Shown here: in pieces, positions 10,470 through 35,000 of the stretch
Layout of the letters: each line of letters opens with the position of its first letter
Numbering within the stretch: position 1 is the first letter of the stretch
Assembly (NCBI GenBank): GCA_000002435.2
Contig: CM018790.1
Length of the DNA: 64,000 bases
Strand: one strand, 5' to 3'
Source: Giardia intestinalis
Lineage: Eukaryota
Notes under the pieces: generated by a model
Seen by the model: only the letters and a program-made list of their open reading frames with translations
Databases searched by the model: none
What the model was told of the DNA's origin: nothing
Made by a program: the position numbers and the translations under genes

Positions 10470-12193
10470 AGGGCTTCGGCGGATCGCTTCACGGTGACGG
10501 TCGTGGCACTGGGCAGAAATCACGTCGCGCCAGCGCCGGGTGCGGCCCTCGCGACGCTGTGTTTCTAGTAAACAGTCGGGATCCCCGCGTCCGTTCCAGT
10601 TCTGACCCGGCGCGCCGTCAGAGCCACTCCTTTTCCCGAGGTTACGGAGCCGGCTTGCCGACTTCCCTGAGCCGCGTTCGCTCCCGCGCTAGAGGCTGCT
10701 GACCCCGGAGTCCTGCTGCGGTCGGTACGGCGCGCGGCCGGCGCCCCCCGGCTTTTCAGGGGCGGCCGGGGACGCGCGGGGTCCGCCCCCGGGCCCCCCT
10801 CTCCGCGCAAGGCGTCCGGGGGCTGCGGGGCGTTCGCGGGCCGGGGCGCCGCCCGCCGCGGTCCCCGTGCGCGTCGCCGGGGGGCGGGCGTCTCCGCGGG
10901 GGCCGCGCCTGCCGGAGTCTCCGCCGGCTCCCCGTTCGACGGGCGGGCACGCCCCTTCCCGGTCTTCACCCGCCGCTTAGGCCCGAGTCACCCGCGGCCA
11001 GATGCAGGCGCCGCGGAACCCGTCTCCCCCTCAGTCCTCCGGGGCGCGGAGTAGCGGCTACTGCTGCCGAGATCTGCACCAGAGGCCGGTCCGGCGGGGC
11101 CTGCGCGCCGCCTTCGCCCCCGGGGCCTCTGCGGCCTCCTACCCGCCGCGCGCGGCGGCCGGGCGCGGGTCCGGGGCTCCGGCGCGCTCCATTTTCCGGG
11201 CCGGCCGATTCGGCTGGTGGGTTGTTACACACTCCCTGGAGGATGCCGACTTCTGGGGCCACCTTCCAGCTGTCGGGACCGGCCGACGCCGTTCCGCGGG
11301 CCCCGGCGGCGCACCCTGGCCCGGCGTCCGGATCGTCCCGCCTCGCCCGTCCTGCTTACCAGGAGGGGCCCACGCGCCGCCCGCATTCGCCCGCCCCGCC
11401 CAGGCCAGCGGCGGGGCGGCGCGGCCCTTCGGAGTTTGGGGGGCGGGCGAGGGGCAGGCCCCCCGCTCCCGCCGGCCAGCGCTCTACGGGCCGCAACTGC
11501 GGGGCGGCGGCTGTCCTGGGAGACATTTCGGAGGCAACCAGCTACCAGGCGGTTCGATGAGTCTTTCGCCCCCATGCCCGGCTCCGACGAGCGATCTGCG
11601 CGTCAGCACCGCGGCGGGCCTCCACCAGGCTTTCGCCCGGCCTCGCCCTCGCCGGGCATAGATCACCGCCTTTCGGGCCCACGCGCCGCGGCTCGGCCCG
11701 CGCACGCCCGCAGGGGCAGGCGGGCCCGGGGCGTCTCGCGCTCGCTCCGCCGCGGGGGCTCCCTCGGGCTCGCCGCGGCGCGTGGCTCCTCGGTCCGTGT
11801 TTCGAGACGGGGCCGGCGGGCCGGCGGCCGGCCGGGTTCAGGTCTTTTGAGCGGCCGCAGGGCGTCCTTTTCACCGTTCGCTCGCGCTACTTGGTCCGCT
11901 ATCGGTCCCGGGGCGTATTTAGCCTTGGAAGGGCCGCGCCTCCCTTCGCGCTGCACGCTCAAGCAGCGCTACTCGCCGCGCAGGCCCGGCGGCCGCCGTA
12001 CGGGGCTTGCACCCTCTCGGGCGGGGCCCTCGGGCCCCCTCGCGGCGGGCCTGCGCCTGCGCCCCACAGCGCGCCTTCGGGGCGGGCTCCTCCCGCGTCG
12101 CTCGCCGCTACGGGGAATCCCGGTTGGTTTCTCCTCCGGGGCGTACTGATATGCTTAAGTTCCGCCCGTCGCCCCCGCCGCCTCGGGCCGCGC
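9489..12193 (-). rRNA. LSU rRNA: LSU rRNA, complete (about 2.7 kb); the only intact LSU in the window
   Basis: Reverse complements of the SRL and the conserved 3' domain at 9640-9830 and of the 5' domain (GCTTAAGTTCC ending 12163). Runs continuously through the unit wrap at about 11399. Confidence 0.75.
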
Positions 12194-12248
12194 AGCCCGG
12201 CGGGACCGCCCCGGGGCGCTCTCTGCGGCGCGGCGCGCGGCACGCGGC

Positions 12249-12388
12249 GGGCGCCGAGGCGGCGGCGCCGGGGCGCGCTGCGTTCGAGGGTCGGTGCTTC
12301 TCGGGGCGGGCGGGTCCGCACCGCGTCTCGCGCTCCGCCGCGCTCTTCGTCGCCGCCCGGGCCGAGGCATCCGCCGGCGGGGCGTTCG
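12249..12388 (-). rRNA. 5.8S rRNA: 5.8S rRNA
   Basis: Copy of 6684..6823 at +5565. Confidence 0.55.
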
Positions 12389-12427
12389 GGGGCCGACCGG
12401 GCCGCGGGGGCGACGCGCGGGGCGCGC

Positions 12428-13879
12428 GAGGGATCCATCCGCAGGTTCACCTACGGATACCTTGTTACGACTTCTCCTTCCTCCAGGCGCGGGGGCTCGC
12501 GGCCCTTCGCGCGTCCGGGGCGCTCGCCGCCGCGCCCAGTCGGTAGGAGCGACGGGCGGTGTGTACAAGGGGCAGGGACGCGTCCGGCGCGCGGTGGGGG
12601 CGGGCGCCTACAAGACATTCCTGGTGCGCGGGGGCGTTCCAGCCCGCGGTCCCGGCCACGGCGGGGGCTCCGCGCGTCCTCGCGGGCGCCGGCTGGCCCC
12701 GCCAGTGTAGCGCGCGTGCGGCCCAGGGCGTCTGAGGGCATCACAGACCTGCTATCGCCCCGCCGTCCTCCCGCTCGCGCGGGCCGTCCCGCGGCGCCCG
12801 CGGCCGGGGTCTCGCTCGTTGTCGCAATGGAGCAGACGGCTCGCGCCACGGGCTGGGAGCGGCCATGCACCACCGCCCGCGCGATCGCGAAAGCGCGCCC
12901 GGCTGTCGGTCCTCCGCGCGTCCGGGCCTGGTGAGGTGCGCGCGTTGAGTCAGATTGAGCCGCAGACTCCACGTCTGGTGGTACCCCTCCGTCAATGCCT
13001 TCAAGTTTCAGCCTTGCGGCCATACTCCCCCCAGAGCCCGGAGCCTCCCGGTTTCCCTGGGCGGCCGGCGGGACGCGCGCGCCGGCCGCGGGGCGGCACC
13101 GTTTACGGCCGGGAATACGGTGGTGTCTGATCGCCTTCTAGCCCCCGGCCTTCGCCCTTGATTGACAGAGGCGGTCTTGGCAGGCGCCTGCGCGGCCGGC
13201 GGTCTCGGCGGGATCATCCTGTTTCACCCGTCCCCGGCCGGTACCGGTGCCCCCGCCCGCTCTCCTCGGGGCTGCCGCGGCGCGCCGCGCCCGCTGCGCG
13301 GTCCCACGCGGCGGGTCCAACGGGCCTGCCTGGAGCGCTCCCGTTTCCTCGTGGCGGCGGGGGGCCAACTACGGGCGTTTCAACTGCAGCAGCGCCGCGC
13401 GACGCTCGCCGAGCTGGAATTACCGCGGCTGCTGGCACCAGACCTTGCCCTCGGCTCCGCGGCGGGGGCTGTGGGCCCGCCTCGCTCGCGCGCTCCCCGT
13501 CGCTGCCTCGCGCGCCGCGCATTGGGCAAGTTCCGCGCCTGCTGCCGTCCTTGGATGTGCGGGCCGTCTCGCAGGCCCGCTCTCCGGAGTCGAACCCTGA
13601 TTCTCCGCCAGGCGTCGGGCCCTCGGCGCGCCGCGACCGCGCCGACCGGGTGATGCCCCGGAAGCCCGGGCGGGCCGTCGCTGCGTCACGCTGCTCGCCC
13701 GCGGGCGCCCGCCCTTGCGCGCACGTCTTGGCGCCGGGTTGCCAGCGGTGTCCGGCTAGCAGGGACCGCCGCGGGGGGTGCAACCGTTGTCCTGAGCCGT
13801 CCGCCGCGTCCCGGGTGAGCGGGCATGCATGGCTTCGTCCTTGGGGAGAGCGTCGCGCTCCGGCAGGATCGACCGGATG
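12428..13879 (-). rRNA. SSU rRNA: SSU rRNA, complete
   Basis: GAGGGATCCATCC from 12428; GGCAGGATCGACCGGATG ending at 13879. Confidence 0.9.
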
Positions 13880-15050
13880 GCCGGGCGCGGGCGCCGCGGG
13901 CCGGGCGCCTCCCTGCGCGGGGGCCGCCGCCTGGCACGGGGGCCGCCCCCTCCGTGCCCATGCCGTGTCGGGGGTCCCCCCTATAGTGCCGGGCGGAGGC
14001 CGCCCCCCACAGCCCGGCCCGGGTCCGCCTGCACCACACTTTTTTGGATTCCCTTGGGGCCCTCTGCCCCCCTCCAAAAAACCGGCCCTCGCGAGATAAA
14101 GCACCTTGTCCTATATAGTGCGTGACGAAGCCGCCCCCACACACCCCCTGGAGTCCCCCTGCACCACATTTTTTTGAAATCCCTTGGGGGCGTCCGGGGG
14201 GCCGGGGGGCCGGTCCGCGGGGAGCGCCGGGGAGCCCGGGCGGACCCTGCAGGACTGCATATCACGGCAAACCCTCCTGTGCGGACCGCGTGTCCCGGGC
14301 TCCCCTGCCGGTCGGGAGATCCGCGCCCCTCGTTCTCCGTCCACCGTGCCCCGGGGAGGCCCTTGACTGCAAAACGATCGAATTGGAGGCTGACTGTGCA
14401 TCCGGGCGCTCTGGGGGCCCTCTCCGGGGAGACCGCCCGAAACGGCTTCTCGCGGGGATCTCAGCAGCCGTGGCTATATACGGTCCGTCTCTAACCTATA
14501 TGATTGCTGGCAGCGGGAGGGCACTGCGTGGGGGGCGGCCCCCCGGAAGGGCGCGGTCCGAGGAGGGGCCCCCGACCGGCCCTGGACCGACTGGGGCAGC
14601 CCCGGGTGCTGTGCGTGCGCCTGGCTGCAGCGGGGCCACGGGGGCGCAGGAGGCCGCAGGAGAGACCGGAGTGTTTACTGGCCCGGGGGATCGGCTGCTC
14701 TGGGCCGTCCGGGGGTCCTTCCGCGCTCTCCCCGCGGTCCCCCGGTCTCCTGCACCGGGCCTCCCCAGCGCCCGTCCCCGCACGTGGGCGTGTCTCCCGG
14801 TCGTGCGTGGCCTGCTGGAGGCGCTGGGCCTCCCTGCCGCCCTCTCTGTCTGGATCCCCCGGGCCGCCTCCCCCGGGCCCCCTGCGGTCCTGCGCCGCCC
14901 CCCTGCGCACACGGGTCTCTCTGTGCAAGGCAGACCCGGTGGTGGGCGTGCACTGCCCCCTGGCCACCCCTTGGGGCACCCTGCACTCCCTCAATCTTCT
15001 CTTTCCGCGCTCTGCCTGTCTGTCTGCCCCGCACCCCCCCAGAGCAAGTG

Positions 15051-15344
15051 GGCCGCGCGCCCCGCCCCGCGCTCTGCAGGCGCGTCCCTCAGGCGATCGC
15101 AGGGCTCTGCGCCGTACAGGAGCGCCGCGCCGGGTGGTCTCCCCGGGCGGGGGCCGCTCGGCGACGGGGCACGGGGCTGGGGCGCGCGGCCGGGCGGGGC
15201 GCGAGGCGGGGTGCGCGCTTAGAGGCGGTCAGCGCAGGGCCCCCGGGCGCGGCGGCGCGGCGCTGCCCGGCCGGGCAACCGCGGGGCTGGCGGCCCGCGG
15301 CGGGCGTTCCTCTCGTACTGGCCCGCCGTGCTCTGGCCCCGGGG

Positions 15345-15397
<53 letters not shown>

Positions 15398-15447
15398 CCT
15401 TGAACGGGTGAACAATCCGACGCTTCCGCGCCGGTGCGCGCGGACGG

Positions 15448-15480
<33 letters not shown>

Positions 15481-15498
15481 GCGTCGCTGCGGGCGCTC

Positions 15499-15537
<39 letters not shown>

Positions 15538-15979
15538 CCACCTCCGCGCCCGCGGCCGGGGCGGCGAAGGATCGGTAGGCCCCGCTTTCGCGGCCCGCGC
15601 CGGCACGGGGGGCGCGGGTCGGGCGGGCTTGTGCCCTTCTGCTCCGCGGGAGGTCTCCGTCCTCGCTGAGCCCGCCGTGGGACGCCTGCGGTCCGGTGTA
15701 GCAGGCGCGCCGCCCCAGCCGAACTCCCCGCCCGGGCGGGTCCCCGCGCGACCGGGTGAGCGGGGCGGCGGCGGCCGTCAGGGTGTCTCAGGGGCGCGGC
15801 CTCCCCTGTGCGCTGCGCCGGCCGCCCCGCCCCACAGGCCCGGGCTGGAGTCAAGCTCAAAAGGGTCTTCTTGCCCCGCTGGCCGGCCCTCGCCCGTTCC
15901 CGAGGCTGGAGGCTCGCGGAGGCGCGGCTCGGGACAGTGGGATCCTCGTTGGTCCATTCATGCACGTCGGAAATTGCCC

Positions 15980-16031
<52 letters not shown>

Positions 16032-16282
16032 AGGGCTTCGGCGGATCGCTTCACGGTGACGGTCGTGGCACTGGGCAGAAATCACGTCGCGCCAGCGCCG
16101 GGTGCGGCCCTCGCGACGCTGTGTTTCTAGTAAACAGTCGGGATCCCCGCGTCCGTTCCAGTTCTGACCCGGCGCGCCGTCAGAGCCACTCCTTTTCCCG
16201 AGGTTACGGAGCCGGCTTGCCGACTTCCCTGAGCCGCGTTCGCTCCCGCGCTAGAGGCTGCTGACCCCGGAGTCCTGCTGCG
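15051..16282 (-). rRNA. LSU rRNA: LSU rRNA 3' portion (about 1.23 kb), truncated at the rDNA / chromosome-core boundary
   Basis: Colinear with 9489..10710 of the previous unit up to ...CTGACCCCGGAGTCCTGCTGCG (ends 16282). The next bases (TGGCGGGGCTCTGATG) no longer match rDNA. Confidence 0.8.
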
Positions 16283-16337
16283 TGGCGGGGCTCTGATGTG
16301 TAAGGTCTGATGTAGAGGCGATAGTTGTTTACTCTGG

Positions 16338-19300
16338 CTACTCTGAGAGGAGGGCCATCATCTCTCTATTGCCCTCGGCTATGTCCAAGAGACTACTCCT
16401 GTTTATGTTCTTCTCCTTCTCTGCGAGGAGTCTCACACACTCTAGGTGGCCATTCGCTGCTGCCCTCATGAGGGCTGTCCGTCCAGAAGTATCATACATG
16501 CCTCCCTCTTTCTCTAGGAGTAGCTCCACTATATCTGCGTAGCTATGTGCCGCTGCTATTATAAGAGCTGTTACATTGTATATGCTCTGGTTTCCTATAT
16601 AGAAATATCCAGACGCCCTCTGCCCTGCCTGGAGGGGAGCAAGTGCCATTGCAGCTACTGGATCGTTTCTATCGGCGGCTCTCATGAGGGCAGTGACTCC
16701 ATTCTCATCTGTGGGATCAAGGAGCTCGACGACGTCCTTGTGCCCCGCCCTTGCGGCGATGGTCAGCGCAGTCTCGCCGTCGCTGTTCTTCTTGTCTTTG
16801 TCCGAGAGGTACTTCTTGACTGTTGTGATGTCCCCAGCGAGAGCCGCGCGCATGAGTGGGGTCCAGGATGAGTCTTCATGTTTGCCGAGCACCACCGCCG
16901 TGTCTATATGCCTGTTCCTGAGGGCGTACATGAGGGCCGTGTCCCCACCTCTATCCTTCATTCCTTTCTGGACTGGTATAAGTAGCTCAGTCGTTTTGGT
17001 GTCTCCTCTGGCTGCGGCTCTCATAAGTGCAGTGACGCCATCTTCATCTGTGGGATCGAGGAGCTCGATAATATCTCTGTATCCTTCCCTTGCAGCAATC
17101 ATCAGCGCAGTCTCATCGTCACTGTTCTTCACGTCTCTCTCATGGAGGTGCCTCCTCGCCATGGTAGCGTCTCCAGTGAAGGCCGCGCACATCAGAAGGG
17201 TCCACGAGGGGGCCTCATGCTCGCGAAGAAGCAGAGCTATGTCTGTGTGCTGATTCTTAAGAGCATACATGAAGGCCGTGTTACCGTCCTTGTCCTTCAT
17301 CCCCTTCTCGTGCTCGAGGAGGAACTCCACTGCTCCCTGGTGGCCTCGCTGTGCAGCCCGCATGAGCGCCGTCATCCAAGTGATGTCGGTGCACCCCTTC
17401 TCGTGGACGTTCTCCCTGACCCCATCCGTGTCCCCGAGGTATGCAGAGTAGATGAGGCCCGTCCAGCCGGAGACACCGCTCTCGTGCTTCATCAGGAGCT
17501 TCACGACCTCGTCCCTTCCGTTCTGAGCAGCAATGATGAGGGCTGTCTGGCCCCGCTTGTCCCTCTGGCCCTTCTCATCGAGGTGCCGGGACGCCATGTC
17601 TATATCTCCGAGGGCCGCGGCGCACATGAGCATCGTCCAGCCGGCGGCGTCCTTTTCATAGTCCATGAGGAGCATTGTGACATCGCGGTGGCCGGCCCGG
17701 GCTGCGTAGGAAAGAGCCGTGCAGCCAGTGTTGTCCTTCAGCCCCTTCTCGTGCTCGACGAGGGCCCTGACAATCTCAAGACTTCCCTGCTGTGCGGCAA
17801 TCATCAGGGCGGTGCGGCCCTGCGGGTCTCTAGAGCTGTGCTCGTGCTCAGCGATCGCCCTAGCAGCCTCGGCGTGCGAGCTGGCCACGGCGATCATCAG
17901 AGCGGTGCTGCCTCTGCTGTCGGTCAGGCCCTTTTCGTGCGGGACCAAGAGGGAGGCGATCTCTGCATGGCCCTTCTCCGCGGCGATCATCAGAGCTGTG
18001 TGGCCATGCGAATCTCGAAGACCATGCTCAAACTCGACAAGTGCCCTAACGGTCTCTACACATGAATTGGCCACGGCCATCACCAGGGCAGTCCGGCCGT
18101 TGTTGTTTCTCTTCCCGTGCTCATGAGGGACGAGGATCCTAGCCACCTTTGAATGGCTATTATGTATGGCGTGCATGAGGGCAGTCCAGCCGTTCTTGTC
18201 CCTGAGGCCCTTCTCCTTCTCAACAAGCAGCTCAACAGGCCCACCGTGCCCCTGCTGGGCTGCATGCATGAGGGCCGTCATCTTCTGCTTGTCACGCTGG
18301 CCGGTGCGGACTCCTTCCTCAAGCAGCACCCGGACGGTCTCTGTGCAGTTCATGTGTGCAGCGCGTATCAACCTGGGGAGTAGGAGAAAGTCGGACTGGG
18401 GGTCAGCTGCATTCATTCCATTGTTGAATTGTGCAATCTTGCTCTCCAGTGCCTTAATCATGGCCAGATGCTCTTTACCCTGGTTTTCGAACGCGTCGAT
18501 CCTAGCAGACTTAGCACTGAGGTCCTTCTCAAGGGCACTAATCCTGTCCGCCTTAGTATTGATATCCTTCTCGAGCGCGTCTATCTTAGTAGACCTTACT
18601 CCGAGATCCTTCTCAAGGGCGGCGACCTTGTCCTCCCTCGCCCTTGCGTCCTTCTCGAGTGCGTCGATCCTAGCAGCCTTCGTCTCTAGCGCGTCCTTGA
18701 GAGAGGCAGTCTCAGCAGACCTGGCGTCGAGGGCTGCCTCAAGAGCGGTGATCCTGTCCAGCTTGGCCTTTGCATCCTCCTCCAGAAGTGTAATCCTAGC
18801 ATTAGCAGTATTCAGAGCAGTCTCCAAGGCGCTGCACTTGCCTTCTAGTGCCACATACCGATGTCCCAGCTCATTAACTGGGACATTAGATGTGGTGAGC
18901 ATCTCATGCAGCTCTTTGGCTGTCAGTCTTTCCTCTGGTTCCAGCACGAATATCCTCTCCAGAACATTCTGCATGAAGCCATCGGTGACACCGCTCAGAT
19001 CGGGCCTCCACCCGTCGACGAAGACGTCTTTTGGGTCTTTGCCTTCTAGGAAGTCCGGTCTCCTCAGAGTTACTAATTCATAAATGATGACCCCGAGGCT
19101 CCATACGTCAGAGGCGGGGCTGGCCTCATTACGGAGGAGCGCCTCGGGGGCCATGTATACTGCCGTGCCTGCAATGGTGCTCCCGCATCTCAGGGCGTCC
19201 TTGCAGAGGCCGAAGTCGGCGATGATGAAGTGTTCACCATCTGCGCTGACGAGGACGTTCGCAAGCTTGAGGTCGCGGTGGACGAGGCCCTTGTAGGGGC

Positions 19301-19754
19301 GACCGTCGGCACCCACTCCGCTGACGCCGTGGAGGTAGGCGAGGGCGGCGGCGAGCTGTCTCAGAATGGAGAGGACCAGCTCGGGAGAGACGGGGGTCTT
19401 CCTCCGCTTGCAGTCGATAAACACTTGCTCGAGGGTCTTGTCGTGGCGATTCATGACGATGTAAATGAAGCCCTCGTCCTCAACCACTTGATGGTACTTG
19501 AGGATCCCTGGGTGGGAGAGGTCGGGGAGGGTGGCCAGCTCGAGTCTAATAGCGTCCACGTTGCTCTTGCCCAGGCCGTCGAGGAGGATCTCCTTCACGG
19601 CGAGGTTTGGATAGCCCTCGAGGGAGTAGACTACACCTGTAACTCCTCTGCCCAGCACGCCATCCAACCGCTCGTGGAGTTCCTCAATGACGAATTGTGG
19701 GATGCTGGGGGCCGATGTTTGGGAGCTGGCTGCGTGGTCATCGCCGTCAGCCAT
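16338..19754 (-). CDS. NEK-family Ser/Thr kinase with a central coiled coil and C-terminal ankyrin repeats (about 1138 aa from the first ATG)
   Basis: Kinase motifs LGRGVTGVVY, AVKEI, VHRDLKLANVLV, ADFGLC, MAPE. Then 14-aa periodic repeats of the IDALEKD type. Then more than 12 ankyrin repeats (GxTALMxAAxxGH...). The track ORF begins on GTG at 19814; the first ATG (MADGDD) is at 19754 with AT-rich TTATTTTTGGAAACAAACTGTC just upstream. Stop TAG is followed 5 nt later by AGTAAAC. Confidence 0.8.
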   Translation of the reverse strand: MADGDDHAASSQTSAPSIPQFVIEELHERLDGVLGRGVTGVVYSLEGYPNLAVKEILLDGLGKSNVDAIRLELATLPDLSHPGILKYHQVVEDEGFIYIVMNRHDKTLEQVFIDCKRRKTPVSPELVLSILRQLAAALAYLHGVSGVGADGRPYKGLVHRDLKLANVLVSADGEHFIIADFGLCKDALRCGSTIAGTAVYMAPEALLRNEASPASDVWSLGVIIYELVTLRRPDFLEGKDPKDVFVDGWRPDLSGVTDGFMQNVLERIFVLEPEERLTAKELHEMLTTSNVPVNELGHRYVALEGKCSALETALNTANARITLLEEDAKAKLDRITALEAALDARSAETASLKDALETKAARIDALEKDARAREDKVAALEKDLGVRSTKIDALEKDINTKADRISALEKDLSAKSARIDAFENQGKEHLAMIKALESKIAQFNNGMNAADPQSDFLLLPRLIRAAHMNCTETVRVLLEEGVRTGQRDKQKMTALMHAAQQGHGGPVELLVEKEKGLRDKNGWTALMHAIHNSHSKVARILVPHEHGKRNNNGRTALVMAVANSCVETVRALVEFEHGLRDSHGHTALMIAAEKGHAEIASLLVPHEKGLTDSRGSTALMIAVASSHAEAARAIAEHEHSSRDPQGRTALMIAAQQGSLEIVRALVEHEKGLKDNTGCTALSYAARAGHRDVTMLLMDYEKDAAGWTMLMCAAALGDIDMASRHLDEKGQRDKRGQTALIIAAQNGRDEVVKLLMKHESGVSGWTGLIYSAYLGDTDGVRENVHEKGCTDITWMTALMRAAQRGHQGAVEFLLEHEKGMKDKDGNTAFMYALKNQHTDIALLLREHEAPSWTLLMCAAFTGDATMARRHLHERDVKNSDDETALMIAAREGYRDIIELLDPTDEDGVTALMRAAARGDTKTTELLIPVQKGMKDRGGDTALMYALRNRHIDTAVVLGKHEDSSWTPLMRAALAGDITTVKKYLSDKDKKNSDGETALTIAARAGHKDVVELLDPTDENGVTALMRAADRNDPVAAMALAPLQAGQRASGYFYIGNQSIYNVTALIIAAAHSYADIVELLLEKEGGMYDTSGRTALMRAAANGHLECVRLLAEKEKNINRSSLLDIAEGNREMMALLSE

Positions 19755-20546
19755 GACAGTTTGTTTCCAAAAATAAGACCAAGCGATCGGATTGAACGAG
19801 TGATTGGGCCACACCCTCAGAGGTTACAAGAAAGTGCAGGCCTCTGCTAGCCTCACTTCCCGAGTCTGTGTCCATAGCAGCAGACACGTCATCCCGTACA
19901 CTGTGGAGCGCCCTTGCATGCCATGGCACCCTGTCTGTCCTGGCTATTCGTGACCATCGCGCATTACTAGTACTCTGCGCCAGCTCCCTCGACTGTGCAG
20001 TCATGGCCATTCCACGTGTGCACGGCCATCTAGCAGCACTCGCCCGCGTTCTCTGCCCTCCTCCGCCACTCATCCACGTGGGCCACGCAGGGTCTAGTGC
20101 CCCTCCAGCGCTGGCCTGTCGGTGCTCTCTTCTGAGGCTGCATGCCCTACAGGATCACCCGTGCTCACCGCATTTTTAGAACCCATCACGCACCAGGGGC
20201 TCCCTCGCGACCAGTGCCCAGAAAGTCACGGGCAGGATTCAGCAGTGCGTTTACTACCGAGACACCAGCCCCCGCAGAGGAAGCCGACGAGCACCCCACA
20301 GCAATGTACAGGAGTGCACCCCGAACGATCATTCCACAGGAGAGGTGCGATCTAAGTCTGGTCCTCACTCATCCTGTTCCTATGGAAGCCAGAGAGAACT
20401 GCACTATCAACTGGCCTCCGGTGGGCGTGCTCCTATCGTATCCTTCTCCGGTCCAACCGATCAAGGAGAGCAAGAGCGGTTGTCTCTCACTGCTCGCGGC
20501 CAATGCACCAGCCTGACGGAAGAGCAGTGGCACACGAACCCGGCTA

Positions 20547-30700: not shown

Positions 30701-31961
30701 CCAGCGATAGGATCCCGTCGTTAGGATCTGCCTTGAGAATGTTCTCGTAGTCAATCAGTGTCTTTATTTGGGCAATCATGGCGTTGCAGAGGCTGCGGAA
30801 TAGAAAAACAAACCTTGCCTGCTCTTTATAGAACGGAGCATGCATCCAGACAAGCTCGAGAGCCTTGAAGATCCCCTGCAGATAGCCCACCGTTTCTACG
30901 GGGTCCATTTGCTCACTGAGTGCGCCAAAAAGAGGCTTAAGAGGAAGAAGGAAGCTTGCATTACAGGAAACCTCCGCCAACTGGGCAATTACATCGCGTT
31001 CGATTTGTGTGAGGGCCGTAAAGTAAGAGGACTCGGTCATGCGGAGTATGTTGAGCGCCTTCATGGCCCGAGGACCTTGGAGCTGCTCCAGGATGGCACG
31101 AAGATTCTCAGCTTTCTGGTTCCAAAAGTCTACTTCCACGTTGGGAAGGTGATGCTGACTCTTTGCTGTTAGTATATCGTCAGGGGAAGACGACAGAACA
31201 GTGCGGATTTGCCGCACCCAATCCAGAATCATAGACTCAAGATCGTGAAGCTTGTCCTTCTGGTCCTTGGATAGCCGCGAAAAGATGGCCACCGCGTCGT
31301 GCTTTACAATTTTCTTCGGCTCCTCTACAACATCGAGCTCATGCACGCGCTGCTGAAGGGCCAAGGAAATGCCATGAGATGCAGCAGTCTGGAGGGGCGC
31401 CGTCTCGGCCTTACAGAGGAACTCGTAAATCATATCTATGTCGGAGCTCATGGGAAGGAGGCACTTCCCCTGGGTTTTTCCCTCCATGGTGCAGGTCTTT
31501 TGCGCAAAGCGATCAGAGTGACGCATAACGTCGGTGACGAGGACAGACGGCCAATTCTTTGTGTAGCTCGGTGCCTTAAGCAGAGGAAGGTATATATAGT
31601 CAAAAGATGTTCGCAGATGGGAAATAATGTTTGGAGTTAGGTCTCCGTAGAAGACAAATTCTCCTATATTGGTTTTGTCGATGCGCGTGGCAGCTGCCGA
31701 GCGCATGAAGTAAATCGCTTTCTTCTTGAAGGATCGAGGAGCCAGGTGAGTAATGCAAAGGTCATCGCGAGAATTGGCGTAAAAGAAGATCCGGGGGAAA
31801 TCATCTGTTTCGAAGAAGGCCAAGGCAATCTGTATTGCATACTCTTCGCCCATGAGCTTCCGCCACCTATCCTCCTTGATTTTTAGCGATGCCTGGAGCC
31901 GAACCTTAAGCCAGTCAAGGCGTGGATCGGAGAAACTGTCGTCATCCTCGCGTGGTGGCAT
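24741..31961 (-). CDS. Dynein heavy chain, N-terminal portion only (tail, linker and AAA1); ORF stops immediately after AAA1
   Basis: AAA1 P-loop [15 protein letters not shown], then ...[12 protein letters not shown] (Walker B) ...[20 protein letters not shown]...[12 protein letters not shown]. Starts on ATG at 31959-31961. TGA at 24741, with TGTAAAC 10 nt downstream. No AAA2-6, stalk or C-terminal domain anywhere in the window. Confidence 0.85.
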   Translation of the reverse strand: [2406 protein letters not shown]

Positions 31962-32030
31962 CGGGGCTTTTTTAATTTTTTAGTTTTTGAATTCACAGCA
32001 AACTACGCCAGAAGTAAGTTGCCTGTTGGC
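31962..32030. promoter_or_regulatory. Short AT-rich divergent promoter region shared by the DHC fragment and the MutL homologue
   Basis: 69 bp between divergent ATGs. Contains GGCTTTTTTAATTTTTTAGTTTTTGAATTC, typical of Giardia AT-rich initiator regions. Confidence 0.5.
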
Positions 32031-35000
32031 ATGAGCCTCCAGCACGCCAGCGGTTCTCCCTCGGGTGATATCAGACAACACATTAAAAGACTGTCGCCCC
32101 TGGATATAATCAGACTCAACTCTCTGGATTGTGCCAACAGCCCAGCTGACGTAGTCAAGGAGCTTATTGAAAACTCTTTGGATGCTGGGGCCACGGTTGT
32201 CAAGGTCTTCTACTCCTACTATGGATACAGAGAAATCGCGGTTTATGACAACGGATTGGGGATTTCTGGCTATGACGATAGCTTCGAGGTCATTGCCAAC
32301 AGTAATTGCACGAGCAAGATCCGCATCTACGACGAGATCTTCTCTGTGCGGACGTACGGATTCCGAGGCAACGCCCTAATGTGGATCAGTTTAAAGGGAG
32401 AGCTTCAGATATTCAGCCGCGGGAGCGATGATGCAAAAGTCATGCGAGCCATCTATGTCAACGGTGGTCTCTTTTCTATCGTCTCTATTCGCACAGAGGA
32501 CGAGGAGTACGTCCTTCGGTCGTTTGTTGGTCATACTACCATAGACGTGTCAGGAAGATTCACCATTATGGTTGTCTCGAATTTTGGCGATAGTCGCCGT
32601 GAAACGGAGATGTCTCCTTCTACACAAAGGAGCGAGCTGGAGGATACCGTTAAGCGCTACGCCATACCCCACTATGACAAAGAGTTCCTTCTCTACGATA
32701 CAGATATGAACATTCCCATTCTTGCTTTGGAAAAGCGGCCCAGTATCTATGACAGGCTATTTGATATCCGACGAGATATATTTACCTCAGGTCACGTTGA
32801 GGGCGGGCAAGCTAGGGCTCCATCAGATACACCTACTGGGGCGCCATCTCACTTGATCACCCGATCGACCACCTTATACATTTCAGAGAAGGAAATCTTG
32901 CAAAGCCCTTTCTATGTTGCCATTAAGAACAAGCACGAGAGTCGTCGTTCTCTTTCTACATGCGCCCCTTCTATTTCTATAGAGAACCACGACACAGCTA
33001 CCTGTACTACACGGGTTTCGAGCACATGTACGGCTAGGGCCAGGGATGCCCGTAGTCCAGAGACCTTCCGGGTGGTGAATCTCGATCAACGTGAAACTCT
33101 GAAAAGGACGTCATCTGCTCCAGCTTCCCTTGGATCACCGGTCATGTCTACTCTTCCTCCAGTTCCTGATACTCTTTGGTACACAGACGCGGTCACAAAG
33201 GGGGACAACTCGGCCCAGATTCGACTTGTTCCACAACTAACTCCATTACTCCTAGCATCGTACTCCACTGGATCCTTACACTTATCAGAAACCTCAGCAG
33301 CCCCAGGAAAGCAGTTACATTTGAAGCACTGTCGCTTCATTAGAGAACTTAGTCACCATTGTCCATCGCACCATAGCTATGTCGCTGCACTTCAGATTTC
33401 CATCCACGCAAGCAATCCACTAATTCATCCTATAGCTAGAAAAAGTTCACAGCAAACTGCGCTCATAAATAGCCTCGTTACTGGCAAGACGATGATGAAT
33501 GCAAATTTGGCCGTGCTCCTATATTATAATAAACGGCCAGTCATTTCAAAGCGTCTTTTCGACGGAATACATGCATGCATAAACGCGTATTTCAAGGAGA
33601 TCTGCGGCCCTAGCCTACTGTTGATAATCATGGAATCGGTTCAGGGCACCTGCTTCTGCGACTTGGATAGAACCCCAGAGAAGAAGTTTATTACATTTGG
33701 AAAGTACATTGGGAAACTTATTCAGGAGAGAATCCTGAGGCTGTTGTCATCCATCTTTTCAAAGAATCTGGGTCGCAAACGGGTGCGGCTCAATGAACAC
33801 CAGCGTCTCCTGGCGAAGGCTAATATGTTTGGCGACTCATTAGACATAGGTGCCAGCGCCAACTCCCACGCCTTGCGATTATTAGGCGGACTTCATGGTG
33901 TGGCGCGGATGGATCCAGCAAAGCTTCTCGACTTTGATTACAGGCTCAGTCTCTTCTTTGAAAAGTGCACTCAGTACCTTTATGAACGGATCTTCGAGGG
34001 CGCGGCTGGGAGCGAGTACCATAGCGGGGTAACAAACCTTGACTCTCGCGCGGCAACGCGGCATATCAACAACAATGTGATCGTCAAGACAATTAAACTG
34101 TATCGTGAGGAGTTCAAAACCTTCGATCCTTATGCTCTGGTGCACCGGAACGTTTCTGAGGAGGTTATGGGCCACAACGGCCCACACTGCCAGACACTCA
34201 CTTCAAATCGCTCTCCTATGGGCGAACAAGGCAGTTGTCGAAAGAGCCACACAGTTGAAGCACGTAGTCCAAGACAGACAGGGTCACATAAGAGCGCTCA
34301 GTCCTGCAAAATCAGCAAGGTGACCACAGATATCATGAAGCGGGTTCTTGGCTGTGACTTTCACACCATCAGAAGTCTCAACAATCCAGTCAAGAAGAAT
34401 TACAAGGCCTTGTTTCTGTCTACCTATCTGCTCTATGGTTCGCAGTATGCGTTGATCAAAAGCTTCACCTTGATGCGTCCGGATCTCATCACTGGTATTT
34501 TGCAATTGGCGCCACATGTTGGCCATTCTCTCAACTATGGTTCTGGCGTTTCTCTCAGCGTCTTGGCGGCTATCTTCAACTCCATTAATAGTTCCTCTGC
34601 CCCAACTGCGGTGCGGTATTCTAAGGTGTATGCCCTGTCCAGCTGCCAGGAATCTAGTGACTGGGTTTCTGAGGCCAAATTTGTGGCCAGGAATCCGTCT
34701 AGCAGCGTCTTTGCACTCAGATCTAGACATACCAGACACTCCTTGCAGGGCAAACAAAAGAACAGCCATATTGCCCCGCCTCCGTCTTCTACTGTCAAGC
34801 TCGTCGGTAGCGCACCTGATGTCCAGCTTCCTGAGACAGTTTCCTCCCGACTAGACACGTCTTACATACCAACTATGACTGCTAGCATGGCGTCGCCCCT
34901 CCTAGAGTATTTGACGCAATTTGCCACCAAGACTGCACACCCAACATCTTACCAGGACGACTGCACCGACATCTCCGAAGTCCCGCTGCACGAACCTGCC

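Follow-up and report, generated by a model that had tools for sequence, protein, structure and literature searches.

Ribosomal DNA-bearing chromosome ends of Giardia rearrange frequently. On the telomere side of their arrays, (TAGGG)n repeats reportedly abut a truncated rRNA gene, as Adam et al. and Le Blancq et al. are both said to have found in 1991 (cited in PMC10999387). According to the Giardia reference-assembly paper (PMC7000408), most chromosome ends carry rRNA genes, and partial as well as pseudo 28S genes are among those listed. A 'telomere gene unit' has also been described in this organism, in which a cysteine-rich/VSP gene, the kinase gene gPK, the ankyrin gene ANK and rRNA genes are followed by the telomere (Upcroft et al. 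1997 and 2010, summarised in PMC10999387). Outside Giardia, subtelomeric rDNA is found in Encephalitozoon cuniculi (PMC4704409), at an rDNA-telomere end in Magnaporthe oryzae (PMC1635262) and in Aurantiochytrium (bioRxiv 10.1101/2023.06.15.545109).

Here we analysed a stretch of 64,000 nucleotides, hereafter the window, in which an rDNA array meets gene-bearing sequence. The array stands on a 1.54-Mb chromosome sequence in the PacBio reference assembly of Giardia intestinalis WB C6. Our results make it highly probable that the window holds the boundary of a subtelomeric rDNA array on its centromere-proximal side, and that this boundary is an old junction inherited from the common ancestor of assemblages A and E. 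The initial annotation of the locus could not match the junction to a described one. However, the component order here (VSP-like gene, kinase/ankyrin gene, rDNA) matches that of the telomere gene unit, the match being one of gene order alone, as given in the review (PMC10999387). The junction is real but unremarkable, and features of its kind have been described before.

The boundary between the rDNA and the NEK gene

Self-BLAST of window positions 1-17000 revealed rDNA repeats with a period of 5,561 bp. The last minus-strand unit is colinear with the previous one up to exactly 16282, which corresponds to 10720. The self-BLAST and the sequence on either side both support this end point, which had been placed at the same base in the initial annotation. 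Across the rDNA/unique-sequence junction (16282..16283), the minus strand reads ...CAGAGCCCCGCCA followed by CGCAGCAGGACTCC... The minus-strand bases at 16283-16285 are a, c and c, where the full rDNA unit has c, a and g, and microhomology at the junction is 0-1 nt. The junction is a structural fact of the sequence and not a statistical pattern. As first noted, the unique core abuts an LSU-internal truncation essentially without a spacer. The GC content is 75.2% in the rDNA (1-16282), 57.4% in the NEK region and 51.3% in the remaining window; across the junction it changes from 74% to 50% in 50-bp flanks and from 68% to 52% in 100-bp flanks. The GC step is real, although smaller and less abrupt than the change from 78% to 50% at one position that had been annotated. 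The junction borders a variable segment with a very high GC content.

On the rDNA side, the junction is formed by a 5'-truncated LSU rRNA stub (15195..16282, minus strand), the innermost and incomplete unit of the subtelomeric array. The stub is 1,088 nt long and covers approximately LSU nt 1,472-2,560, as defined by the colinearity and by an Rfam LSU_rRNA_eukarya match at 15195-16246 (minus strand; model positions 1891-3399 of 3401). The break had been estimated at LSU nt ~1480 of ~2700; the Rfam boundaries place it close to that, at nt ~1,472 of ~2,560. The LSU 5' half is indeed missing from the last unit (~57% of the LSU), together with the promoter, the SSU and the 5.8S. A complete SSU-5.8S-LSU unit with an upstream spacer and promoter is not found here, and it is the NEK 3' end that stands upstream of the stub. 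Because the promoter, SSU, 5.8S and LSU 5' half are missing, the stub is a pseudogene. Over 4,888 aligned bp of the self-BLAST, 1 mismatch and 8 short gaps separate the WB stub from the full unit.

On the unique side lies a NEK kinase gene whose product carries ankyrin repeats in its C-terminal region (16338..19754, minus strand; 1,138 aa). Its open reading frame and translation confirm that the gene is intact, and its TAG stop lies, in reverse complement, at 16338-16340, both as initially annotated. The protein is 100% identical to KAE8301904.1 / XP_001704556.2 of Giardia intestinalis WB C6. An earlier annotation, XP_001704556.1, comprised the ankyrin part alone (707 aa, 'Protein 21.1'), and the ankyrin region occupies the C-terminal ~700 aa of the present reading frame. 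HRD, DFG and APE motifs are present in the translation, and the homologues of the protein are listed with Pfam Pkinase and Ank domains. A cysteine-rich VSP-like gene (20547..21728, plus strand; High cysteine membrane protein KAE8301905.1; Pfam VSP, E = 3.3e-79) is transcribed divergently from the NEK gene.

The consensus of the Giardia poly(A) signal is AGTRAAY. The NEK gene has AGTAAAC at 16327..16333 (minus strand; reverse complement gtttact), 4 nt 3' of the stop, and not at about 16318-16327 as first assigned. The distance to the rDNA is therefore 44 nt from the signal, in place of the 35 bp first given, and 55 nt from the stop codon. Between the signal and the stub lies a 44-nt spacer that is unique within the window (16283..16326, minus strand), in which 3' cleavage of the NEK mRNA is expected.

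The NEK gene shares its strand with the rDNA units next to it, and both are directed outward from the unique core; transcription of the minus-strand units leads away from NEK and toward the low-coordinate end of the window. Since they are co-directional, rRNA read-through from the adjoining units antisense to the NEK 3' end, which had been considered at first, is impossible. Any read-through here would proceed in sense, out of NEK and into the stub. The units at 1-5839, which are plus-oriented, do face NEK but are more than 10 kb off.

The remainder of the minus-oriented rDNA (5838..15194; Rfam and self-BLAST) contains an SSU (12428-13879), a complete LSU (9632-12169; Rfam model 23-3401) and another SSU (6863-8314), all located by Rfam on the minus strand, as well as two IGS. 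It ends in the 5' part of a minus-strand LSU that is cut by a fold-back, with its edge at ~5838 (Rfam and self-BLAST). The rDNA beyond is inverted (1..5839, plus strand), with an LSU 3' part at 1-1767, an SSU at 3081-4532 and an LSU 5' part from 4792. This plus-oriented rDNA corresponds to 5838-11399 in reverse complement, with a loop of 275 nt at 5563-5837. The break points of the fold-back are inside the LSU, at about nt 790 and 1,069. The fold-back at ~5563-5837 may be a real inversion or an assembly artefact.

The joint in other Giardia isolates

The window represents isolate WB (assemblage A1). We compared it with the assemblies of DH (assemblage A2; GCA_000498715.1) and P15 (assemblage E; GCA_000182665.1), and found the joint in three further contigs from these two independently made assemblies. 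In DH contig AHGT01000109.1, the joint is at the identical coordinate and is followed by ~506 nt of LSU, with a lone G-to-A change at the second LSU base. This contig is syntenic with the window and 98.6% identical to it over 11.4 kb of core, against 86-90% for the neighbouring NEK and VSP genes. From stop to junction, the 58 nt at 16283-16340 are 95% identical between WB and DH (3/58 nt differ).

Two P15 contigs carry the joint. The best NEK match (69% aa, 79% nt) is in ACVC01000074.1, where the homologous stop, AGTAAAC and the spacer are followed by 33 nt of LSU that run from the identical coordinate to the contig end. Contig ACVC01000422.1 contains a paralogous NEK gene, a spacer homologous to that of ACVC01000074.1, and then 536 nt of LSU, which is entered ~16 nt upstream of the coordinate used in WB, DH and ACVC01000074.1. 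AGTAAAC is conserved in the DH junction and both P15 junctions. Homology to the WB spacer is recognisable at both P15 junctions despite indels between the two isolates, and the spacer length across the junctions is 44 to 69 nt. The homology of the spacers suggests a single ancestral junction, passed on by descent and duplicated from one chromosome end to another. Upstream of NEK, the genes of P15 are not syntenic with those of WB, and the NEK-rDNA block is thus joined to different neighbours in assemblages E and A.

The 16-nt LSU edge of ACVC01000422.1 is absent from WB and DH. In ACVC01000074.1, 7/16 bases match it, CGTA included, and the differences are mostly transitions. Judged by these bases, ACVC01000074.1 appears to retain a copy of the 16 nt that has decayed from GC to AT. 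The history of this edge may be one of decay or deletion, or of a later extension by gene conversion in ACVC01000422.1.

It is exceedingly improbable that the joint is an assembly artefact, produced when an rDNA read was chimerically joined to the end of a unique contig (PacBio/HGAP). Repeats at contig ends are error-prone, and a suspicious fold-back lies in the same rDNA block (5563-5837), but the joint recurs in three contigs of two independent assemblies, made from other isolates (DH once, P15 twice). WB contamination of the DH and P15 contigs is excluded by their NEK identity of 79-90%. Neither assembly places a full LSU plus IGS beside NEK, an arrangement that the initial annotation had set against its own reading; both show the same joint as WB.

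Searches with other sequences returned little. In a metagenome scan, the gapped junction pattern had no match, and the LSU-edge pattern had one, to an ordinary complete Giardia LSU in a human gut metagenome. Comparison of the rDNA with the WB spacer, and with the GC-rich tract that follows NEK in P15, gave short chance matches only. Logan contigs with the FtsJ gene are only 1.6-2.3 kb long and end short of the junction. Three paralogous loci were set aside, each being without rDNA: a DH VSP-NEK contig, a GS (assemblage B) contig carrying a small ankyrin gene, and a tandem VSP-ANK array on an ENA contig.

Origin of the joint

Being common to A1 (WB), A2 (DH) and E (P15), the joint is an old inherited feature and no fresh break; no such junction was recovered from assemblage B, and its age can be followed back to the A/E ancestor only. 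A recent WB-specific break within the LSU or just downstream of NEK, subsequently healed, would be consistent with the clean boundary, the 0-1 nt of microhomology and the lack of a spacer. Rearrangement of rDNA-bearing Giardia chromosome ends is also often seen, with an estimate of about 1% per division (cited in PMC3091692). Such an origin is nevertheless very improbable, with the junction and its homologous flanks found in DH and twice in P15. The spacer itself has diverged, and the substitutions between WB and DH and the indels relative to P15 are expected of an old junction. The joint is also without telomere repeats: three copies of TAGGG, with 1 mismatch allowed, are absent from the joint and from the whole window, which begins inside the rDNA and leaves the array end out of view. 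The 'breakage and healing' of the initial annotation is supported neither as a recent or unique scar, given the shared junction, nor as telomere addition, as the break has no TAGGG/CCCTA and the edge is on the centromere side.

Similar joints could in principle be formed by independent breaks at different chromosome ends, if LSU nt ~1,455-1,472 were a recurrent fragile site. The coordinates of the two P15 junctions are 16 nt apart, the fold-back also broke inside the LSU, and the break lies at the edge of the very GC-rich variable segment. However, the fold-back breaks are at other LSU positions (about nt 790 and 1,069), and the unique sides of 4/4 junctions are homologous (stop, AGTAAAC and >35 nt of spacer), which points to common descent and against independent events. 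We regard a fragile site as improbable.

For the inherited junction we propose the following history. The joint would have arisen once, before A and E diverged, by an illegitimate join or a deletion that placed an rDNA/telomere end on the 3' flank of NEK. It was then probably inherited, and copied between chromosome ends along with the NEK gene. Concerted evolution could keep the rDNA side identical to the array almost to its last base; the extreme edge of the rDNA may escape this process, and then decay or be deleted. Pol I transcription would leave NEK undisturbed, because the gene and the rDNA are co-directional. The stub is predicted to have no coding role, and may at most provide homology for rDNA-mediated rearrangements of chromosome ends.

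The persistence of the joint could also reflect selection, for a Pol I/Pol II domain boundary or for an anchor from which a lost rDNA/telomere cap is recopied from another end. The joint has been kept in A1, A2 and E and at two E ends despite the fast divergence of the NEK and VSP genes beside it, and the block travels with its rDNA onto different cores. On the other hand, a neutral junction is equally expected to persist, since its loss requires loss of the 3' end of an intact gene, and both the variable spacer length (44 to 69 nt) and the decay or deletion of the LSU edge argue against tight constraint on the joint. Selection for such an element is improbable. It is doubtful, too, whether the NEK 3' end, spacer and LSU stub form a chromosome-end module that is both conserved and mobile, predates the A/E divergence and is present at several ends. 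In such a module the stub would be a homology anchor for exchanging or regenerating rDNA-telomere caps, or a Pol II/Pol I insulator. A module of this kind would account for the persistence of the joint despite changes in the genes beside it and in the attachment to the core.

Comparison with described chromosome ends

Our analysis confirmed that the WB reference chromosome end is correctly joined to its rDNA, which has little weight beyond bookkeeping. The joint is a stable landmark in A1, A2 and E, and could therefore be used as a PCR or long-read anchor to follow rDNA array length and end rearrangements. Three small points are new: the cut is present at two P15 ends, the core to which the NEK-rDNA block is attached differs between A and E, and the final bases of the stub seem unhomogenised. 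All three are in keeping with what is established about recombining subtelomeric rDNA in Giardia and leave that picture unchanged.

The closest described system is the telomere gene unit, which is from the same organism and has the same component order. The VSP-like gene at 20547-21728 is followed by the kinase and ankyrin regions at 16338-19754 and then by rDNA; the ankyrin region lies between the kinase and the rDNA, and the rRNA genes lie beyond. The ankyrin part was once annotated apart (707 aa), echoing the separate gPK and ANK genes, whereas here kinase and ankyrin form one open reading frame of 1,138 aa. The VSP-like gene also differs: it encodes a 393-aa high cysteine membrane protein (HCMP), and the VSP gene of the originally described unit is CRP136 (GL_103142). 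As CRP136 differs from the 393-aa gene, the block here may be a paralogous telomere gene unit. Any telomere repeats would lie beyond this window.

The joint resembles the truncations reported on the telomere side of Giardia arrays in that an rRNA gene is cut short where a subtelomeric array ends and the transition is abrupt. Those truncations are reportedly distal and healed by telomeres, whereas the one described here is proximal and is joined to gene-bearing unique DNA, without TAGGG. As in Encephalitozoon, Magnaporthe and Aurantiochytrium, the rDNA units are the outermost genic element ahead of the telomere, and duplicated subtelomeric blocks occur at different ends. In the Giardia case described here, the innermost rDNA unit is cut within the LSU, 55 nt from the stop codon of an intact gene, and lineages have this cut in common.

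The rDNA array and its innermost LSU copy

Eukaryotic SSU and LSU rRNA genes were found by Rfam across positions 1-16246 of the window, with scores of ~797 bits for the SSU and up to 1,333 bits for the LSU. Self-BLAST showed that the array repeats every 5,561 bp, with ~99.8% identity. The minus-strand units span 16282 down to 5838. Innermost is a truncated LSU, the stub (15195-16282, -), followed by a spacer, an SSU (12428-13879, -; Rfam), a complete LSU (9632-12169, -; Rfam), a spacer, an SSU (6863-8314, -; Rfam) and the 5' part only of another LSU (-), which runs up to a fold-back at ~5838. Positions 1-5562 are the reverse complement of 5838-11399 (99.8%), with a loop of 275 nt (5563-5837) between them, and both break points are within the LSU, at ~nt 790 and ~nt 1,069. 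Therefore, plus-oriented units converge on minus-oriented ones, and the rDNA in 1-11399 is not a simple head-to-tail array. The fold-back could be a genuine inversion or a PacBio/HGAP contig-end artefact. No TAGGG telomere repeats were found in the whole window. A 211-aa ORF with a TTG start (15629-16264, +) lies wholly inside the stub on the strand opposite to the rRNA, and is almost certainly a spurious product of GC-rich rDNA.

The last unit is colinear with the one before it up to exactly 16282, the point proposed in the initial annotation and recovered by self-BLAST. Across this point, the minus strand reads ...GCCGTACCGAC followed by CGCAGCAGGACTCC... in the full unit and ...CAGAGCCCCGCCA followed by CGCAGCAGGACTCC... 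in the last unit. With the complete copy as delimited by Rfam for reference, the break falls at ~nt 1,472 of an LSU of ~2,560 nt, close to the ~1480 of ~2700 first estimated. The stub consists of the 3' 1,088 nt. It lacks the LSU 5' half, the 5.8S, the SSU and any upstream spacer, and therefore cannot be a functional rRNA gene. The GC content is 75.2% in the rDNA, 57% in the adjoining NEK gene and 51% in the remaining window. The reported drop at one position from ~78% to ~50% is real but slightly smaller and more gradual, the 50-bp flanks of the junction having 74% (rDNA side) versus 50%. The feature is real and is present in the annotated reference genome.

The ORF next to the junction (16338-19754, -; 1,138 aa) is 100% identical to 'Kinase, NEK' KAE8301904.1/XP_001704556.2 of Giardia intestinalis ATCC 50803 (WB C6). 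Its stop codon is TAG (16340-16338), and an AGTAAAC motif is located at 16333-16327, not at ~16318-16327 as first placed. The motif fits the Giardia poly(A) consensus AGTRAAY. The rDNA begins 44 nt (rather than 35 bp) past the signal and 55 nt past the stop codon, with all NEK termination signals within 55 nt of unique sequence. NEK and the adjoining rDNA units are on the same strand. The units are thus transcribed away from NEK, toward the low-coordinate end of the window, and the antisense rRNA read-through into NEK that had been envisaged is impossible from adjacent units.

The same junction in assemblages A and E

The junction was compared between WB (A1), DH (A2) and P15 (E, n=2), the last two represented by three further contigs of two other assemblies. 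Among the contigs retrieved, none carried an assemblage B junction. The DH contig AHGT01000109.1, located via the neighbouring FtsJ-type methyltransferase gene, is syntenic with the window, at 98.6% identity across the 11.4 kb that hold the methyltransferase, dynein and next gene, and carries an intact NEK ORF and then ~506 nt of LSU. Its junction, ...CAGAGCCCCGCCA followed by CACAGCAGGACTCC..., is at the WB coordinate, with a single G-to-A at the second LSU base. The protein database has no closer relative of NEK than the one on P15 ACVC01000074.1 (contig 74), which is 69% identical in aa and 79% in nt. This contig enters the LSU at the WB coordinate and ends 33 nt into it; the stop codon, AGTAAAC and spacer that precede its LSU can be recognised as homologues of those in WB. 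P15 ACVC01000422.1 carries a paralogous NEK (P0014) adjoining an FtsJ gene. After this NEK come a homologue of the contig 74 spacer and 536 nt of LSU, which is entered ~16 nt farther upstream (GCGCCGTACCGACCAC followed by CGCAGCAGG). Seven of the 16 bases in this LSU edge, including CGTA, match contig 74, and the differences are mostly transitions; the 16 nt in contig 74 look like a decayed copy of the edge. WB and DH lack these 16 nt.

The unique sides are homologous in all four junctions, which makes a single ancestral junction, older than the A/E split and duplicated to at least two chromosome ends, the simplest reading of these alignments. Production of the junctions by repeated breakage would be a less simple one. 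Rather than a full LSU plus IGS, the DH and P15 contigs show the same joint, an outcome that favours a real junction. Its presence in three contigs of two other assemblies rules out an assembly artefact. Sharing with DH and P15 likewise rules out a recent scar, as implied by the 'breakage and healing' of the initial annotation, and the joint is without telomere repeats.

In contig 74 (13592-14129), the P15 NEK ends at its own TAA, itself inside an AGTAAAC. A GC-rich tract of ~90 nt follows, then a ~350-nt relic of a second ankyrin C-terminus, and it is the stop codon, poly(A) signal and spacer of this relic that are homologous to the WB NEK 3' end and abut the rDNA. The relic looks like a tandem duplication of the last ~400 nt of the gene.

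The joint probably arose in a single event, a non-homologous join or deletion with 0-1 nt of microhomology. Concerted evolution has probably kept its rDNA side like the rest of the array since then. The WB stub has 1 mismatch and 8 short gaps relative to the full unit over 4,888 aligned bp (self-BLAST), and the T variant of the P15 stubs recurs in a complete LSU of Giardia recovered from a gut metagenome. The outermost bases probably escape homogenisation and drift, instances being the G-to-A of DH, the decay of the 16 nt in contig 74 and, in assemblage A, the deletion. The NEK-rDNA block itself is probably mobile, having joined different chromosome cores. It seems improbable that the stub, with its fixed joint, is maintained as a recombination anchor or boundary element and travels with the chromosome end.

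Neighbouring genes and chromosome-end exchange

NEK adjoins a divergently transcribed cysteine-rich VSP-type gene (393 aa, KAE8301905.1; Pfam VSP, E = 3e-79), beyond which lie a methyltransferase, a dynein heavy-chain N-terminal gene, EF-1 alpha and another VSP-like gene. The 2,406-aa dynein ORF (24741-31961, -) stops early, covering no more of the heavy chain than its N-terminal regions and first AAA domain. Dynein heavy chains in Giardia are split and trans-spliced, and this ORF is presumably one such piece.

Between WB and DH (window 16283-33948), identity is 98.6% from the methyltransferase inwards, 86-90% over NEK and the VSP-like gene, and ~100% in the rDNA. Either evolution is much faster in these two genes than in the core, or paralogues are converting them. 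A 13,105-bp Giardia-like contig from a human gut metagenome from Nepal (ENA ERZ4567563) is built of ~4,957-bp units in tandem. Every unit encodes a VSP of 310 aa, an ankyrin protein of 247 aa that shares 58% identity with the C-terminus of NEK, and a further ORF of 80 aa; no rDNA was found on the contig.

The FtsJ-type cap methyltransferase gene (22700-23950) has two copies at least 90% identical in each of WB, DH and P15, those in WB being on contigs of 1.54 and 1.97 Mb. In P15, one copy adjoins a NEK-rDNA end (ACVC01000422.1) but agrees on its opposite side with the non-terminal DH copy (AHGT01000031.1), an arrangement that suggests exchange between chromosome ends, with a break point close to the methyltransferase gene.

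Upstream of its best NEK match, P15 has genes unrelated to those in WB, and the other flank of its FtsJ-linked copy holds the genes that neighbour the second FtsJ paralogue of DH. The NEK-rDNA block has therefore been joined to different chromosome cores, in keeping with the rDNA-mediated rearrangements of chromosome ends known in Giardia (PMC3091692, PMC4570179).

Relation to the telomere gene unit

The telomere gene unit of Upcroft and colleagues, as described in a 2024 review, comprises a cysteine-rich gene, a kinase gene, an ankyrin gene, then rRNA genes and the telomere (PMC10999387). The block in the window likewise contains a VSP-type cysteine-rich gene, a kinase/ankyrin gene and rDNA. 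In the older WB annotation, the ankyrin part of NEK stands alone as a separate 707-aa protein, which fits the historical gPK / ANK split of the unit. However, CRP136 of the unit is GL_103142, a gene other than the VSP-type gene here. The equivalence of the two blocks rests on the architecture in the review's description, not on sequence. The paper on the chromosome-scale PacBio reference of WB, from which the window comes, places 18S/5.8S/28S genes at the majority of chromosome ends; the 28S genes it lists include 5 that are partial and 12 pseudo genes (PMC7000408). The junction is part of an architecture that has already been described in Giardia, to which our analysis adds the base-level conservation of the joint in A1, A2 and E, its second copy in P15 and the decay of its edge. 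These additions are tidy and unsurprising.
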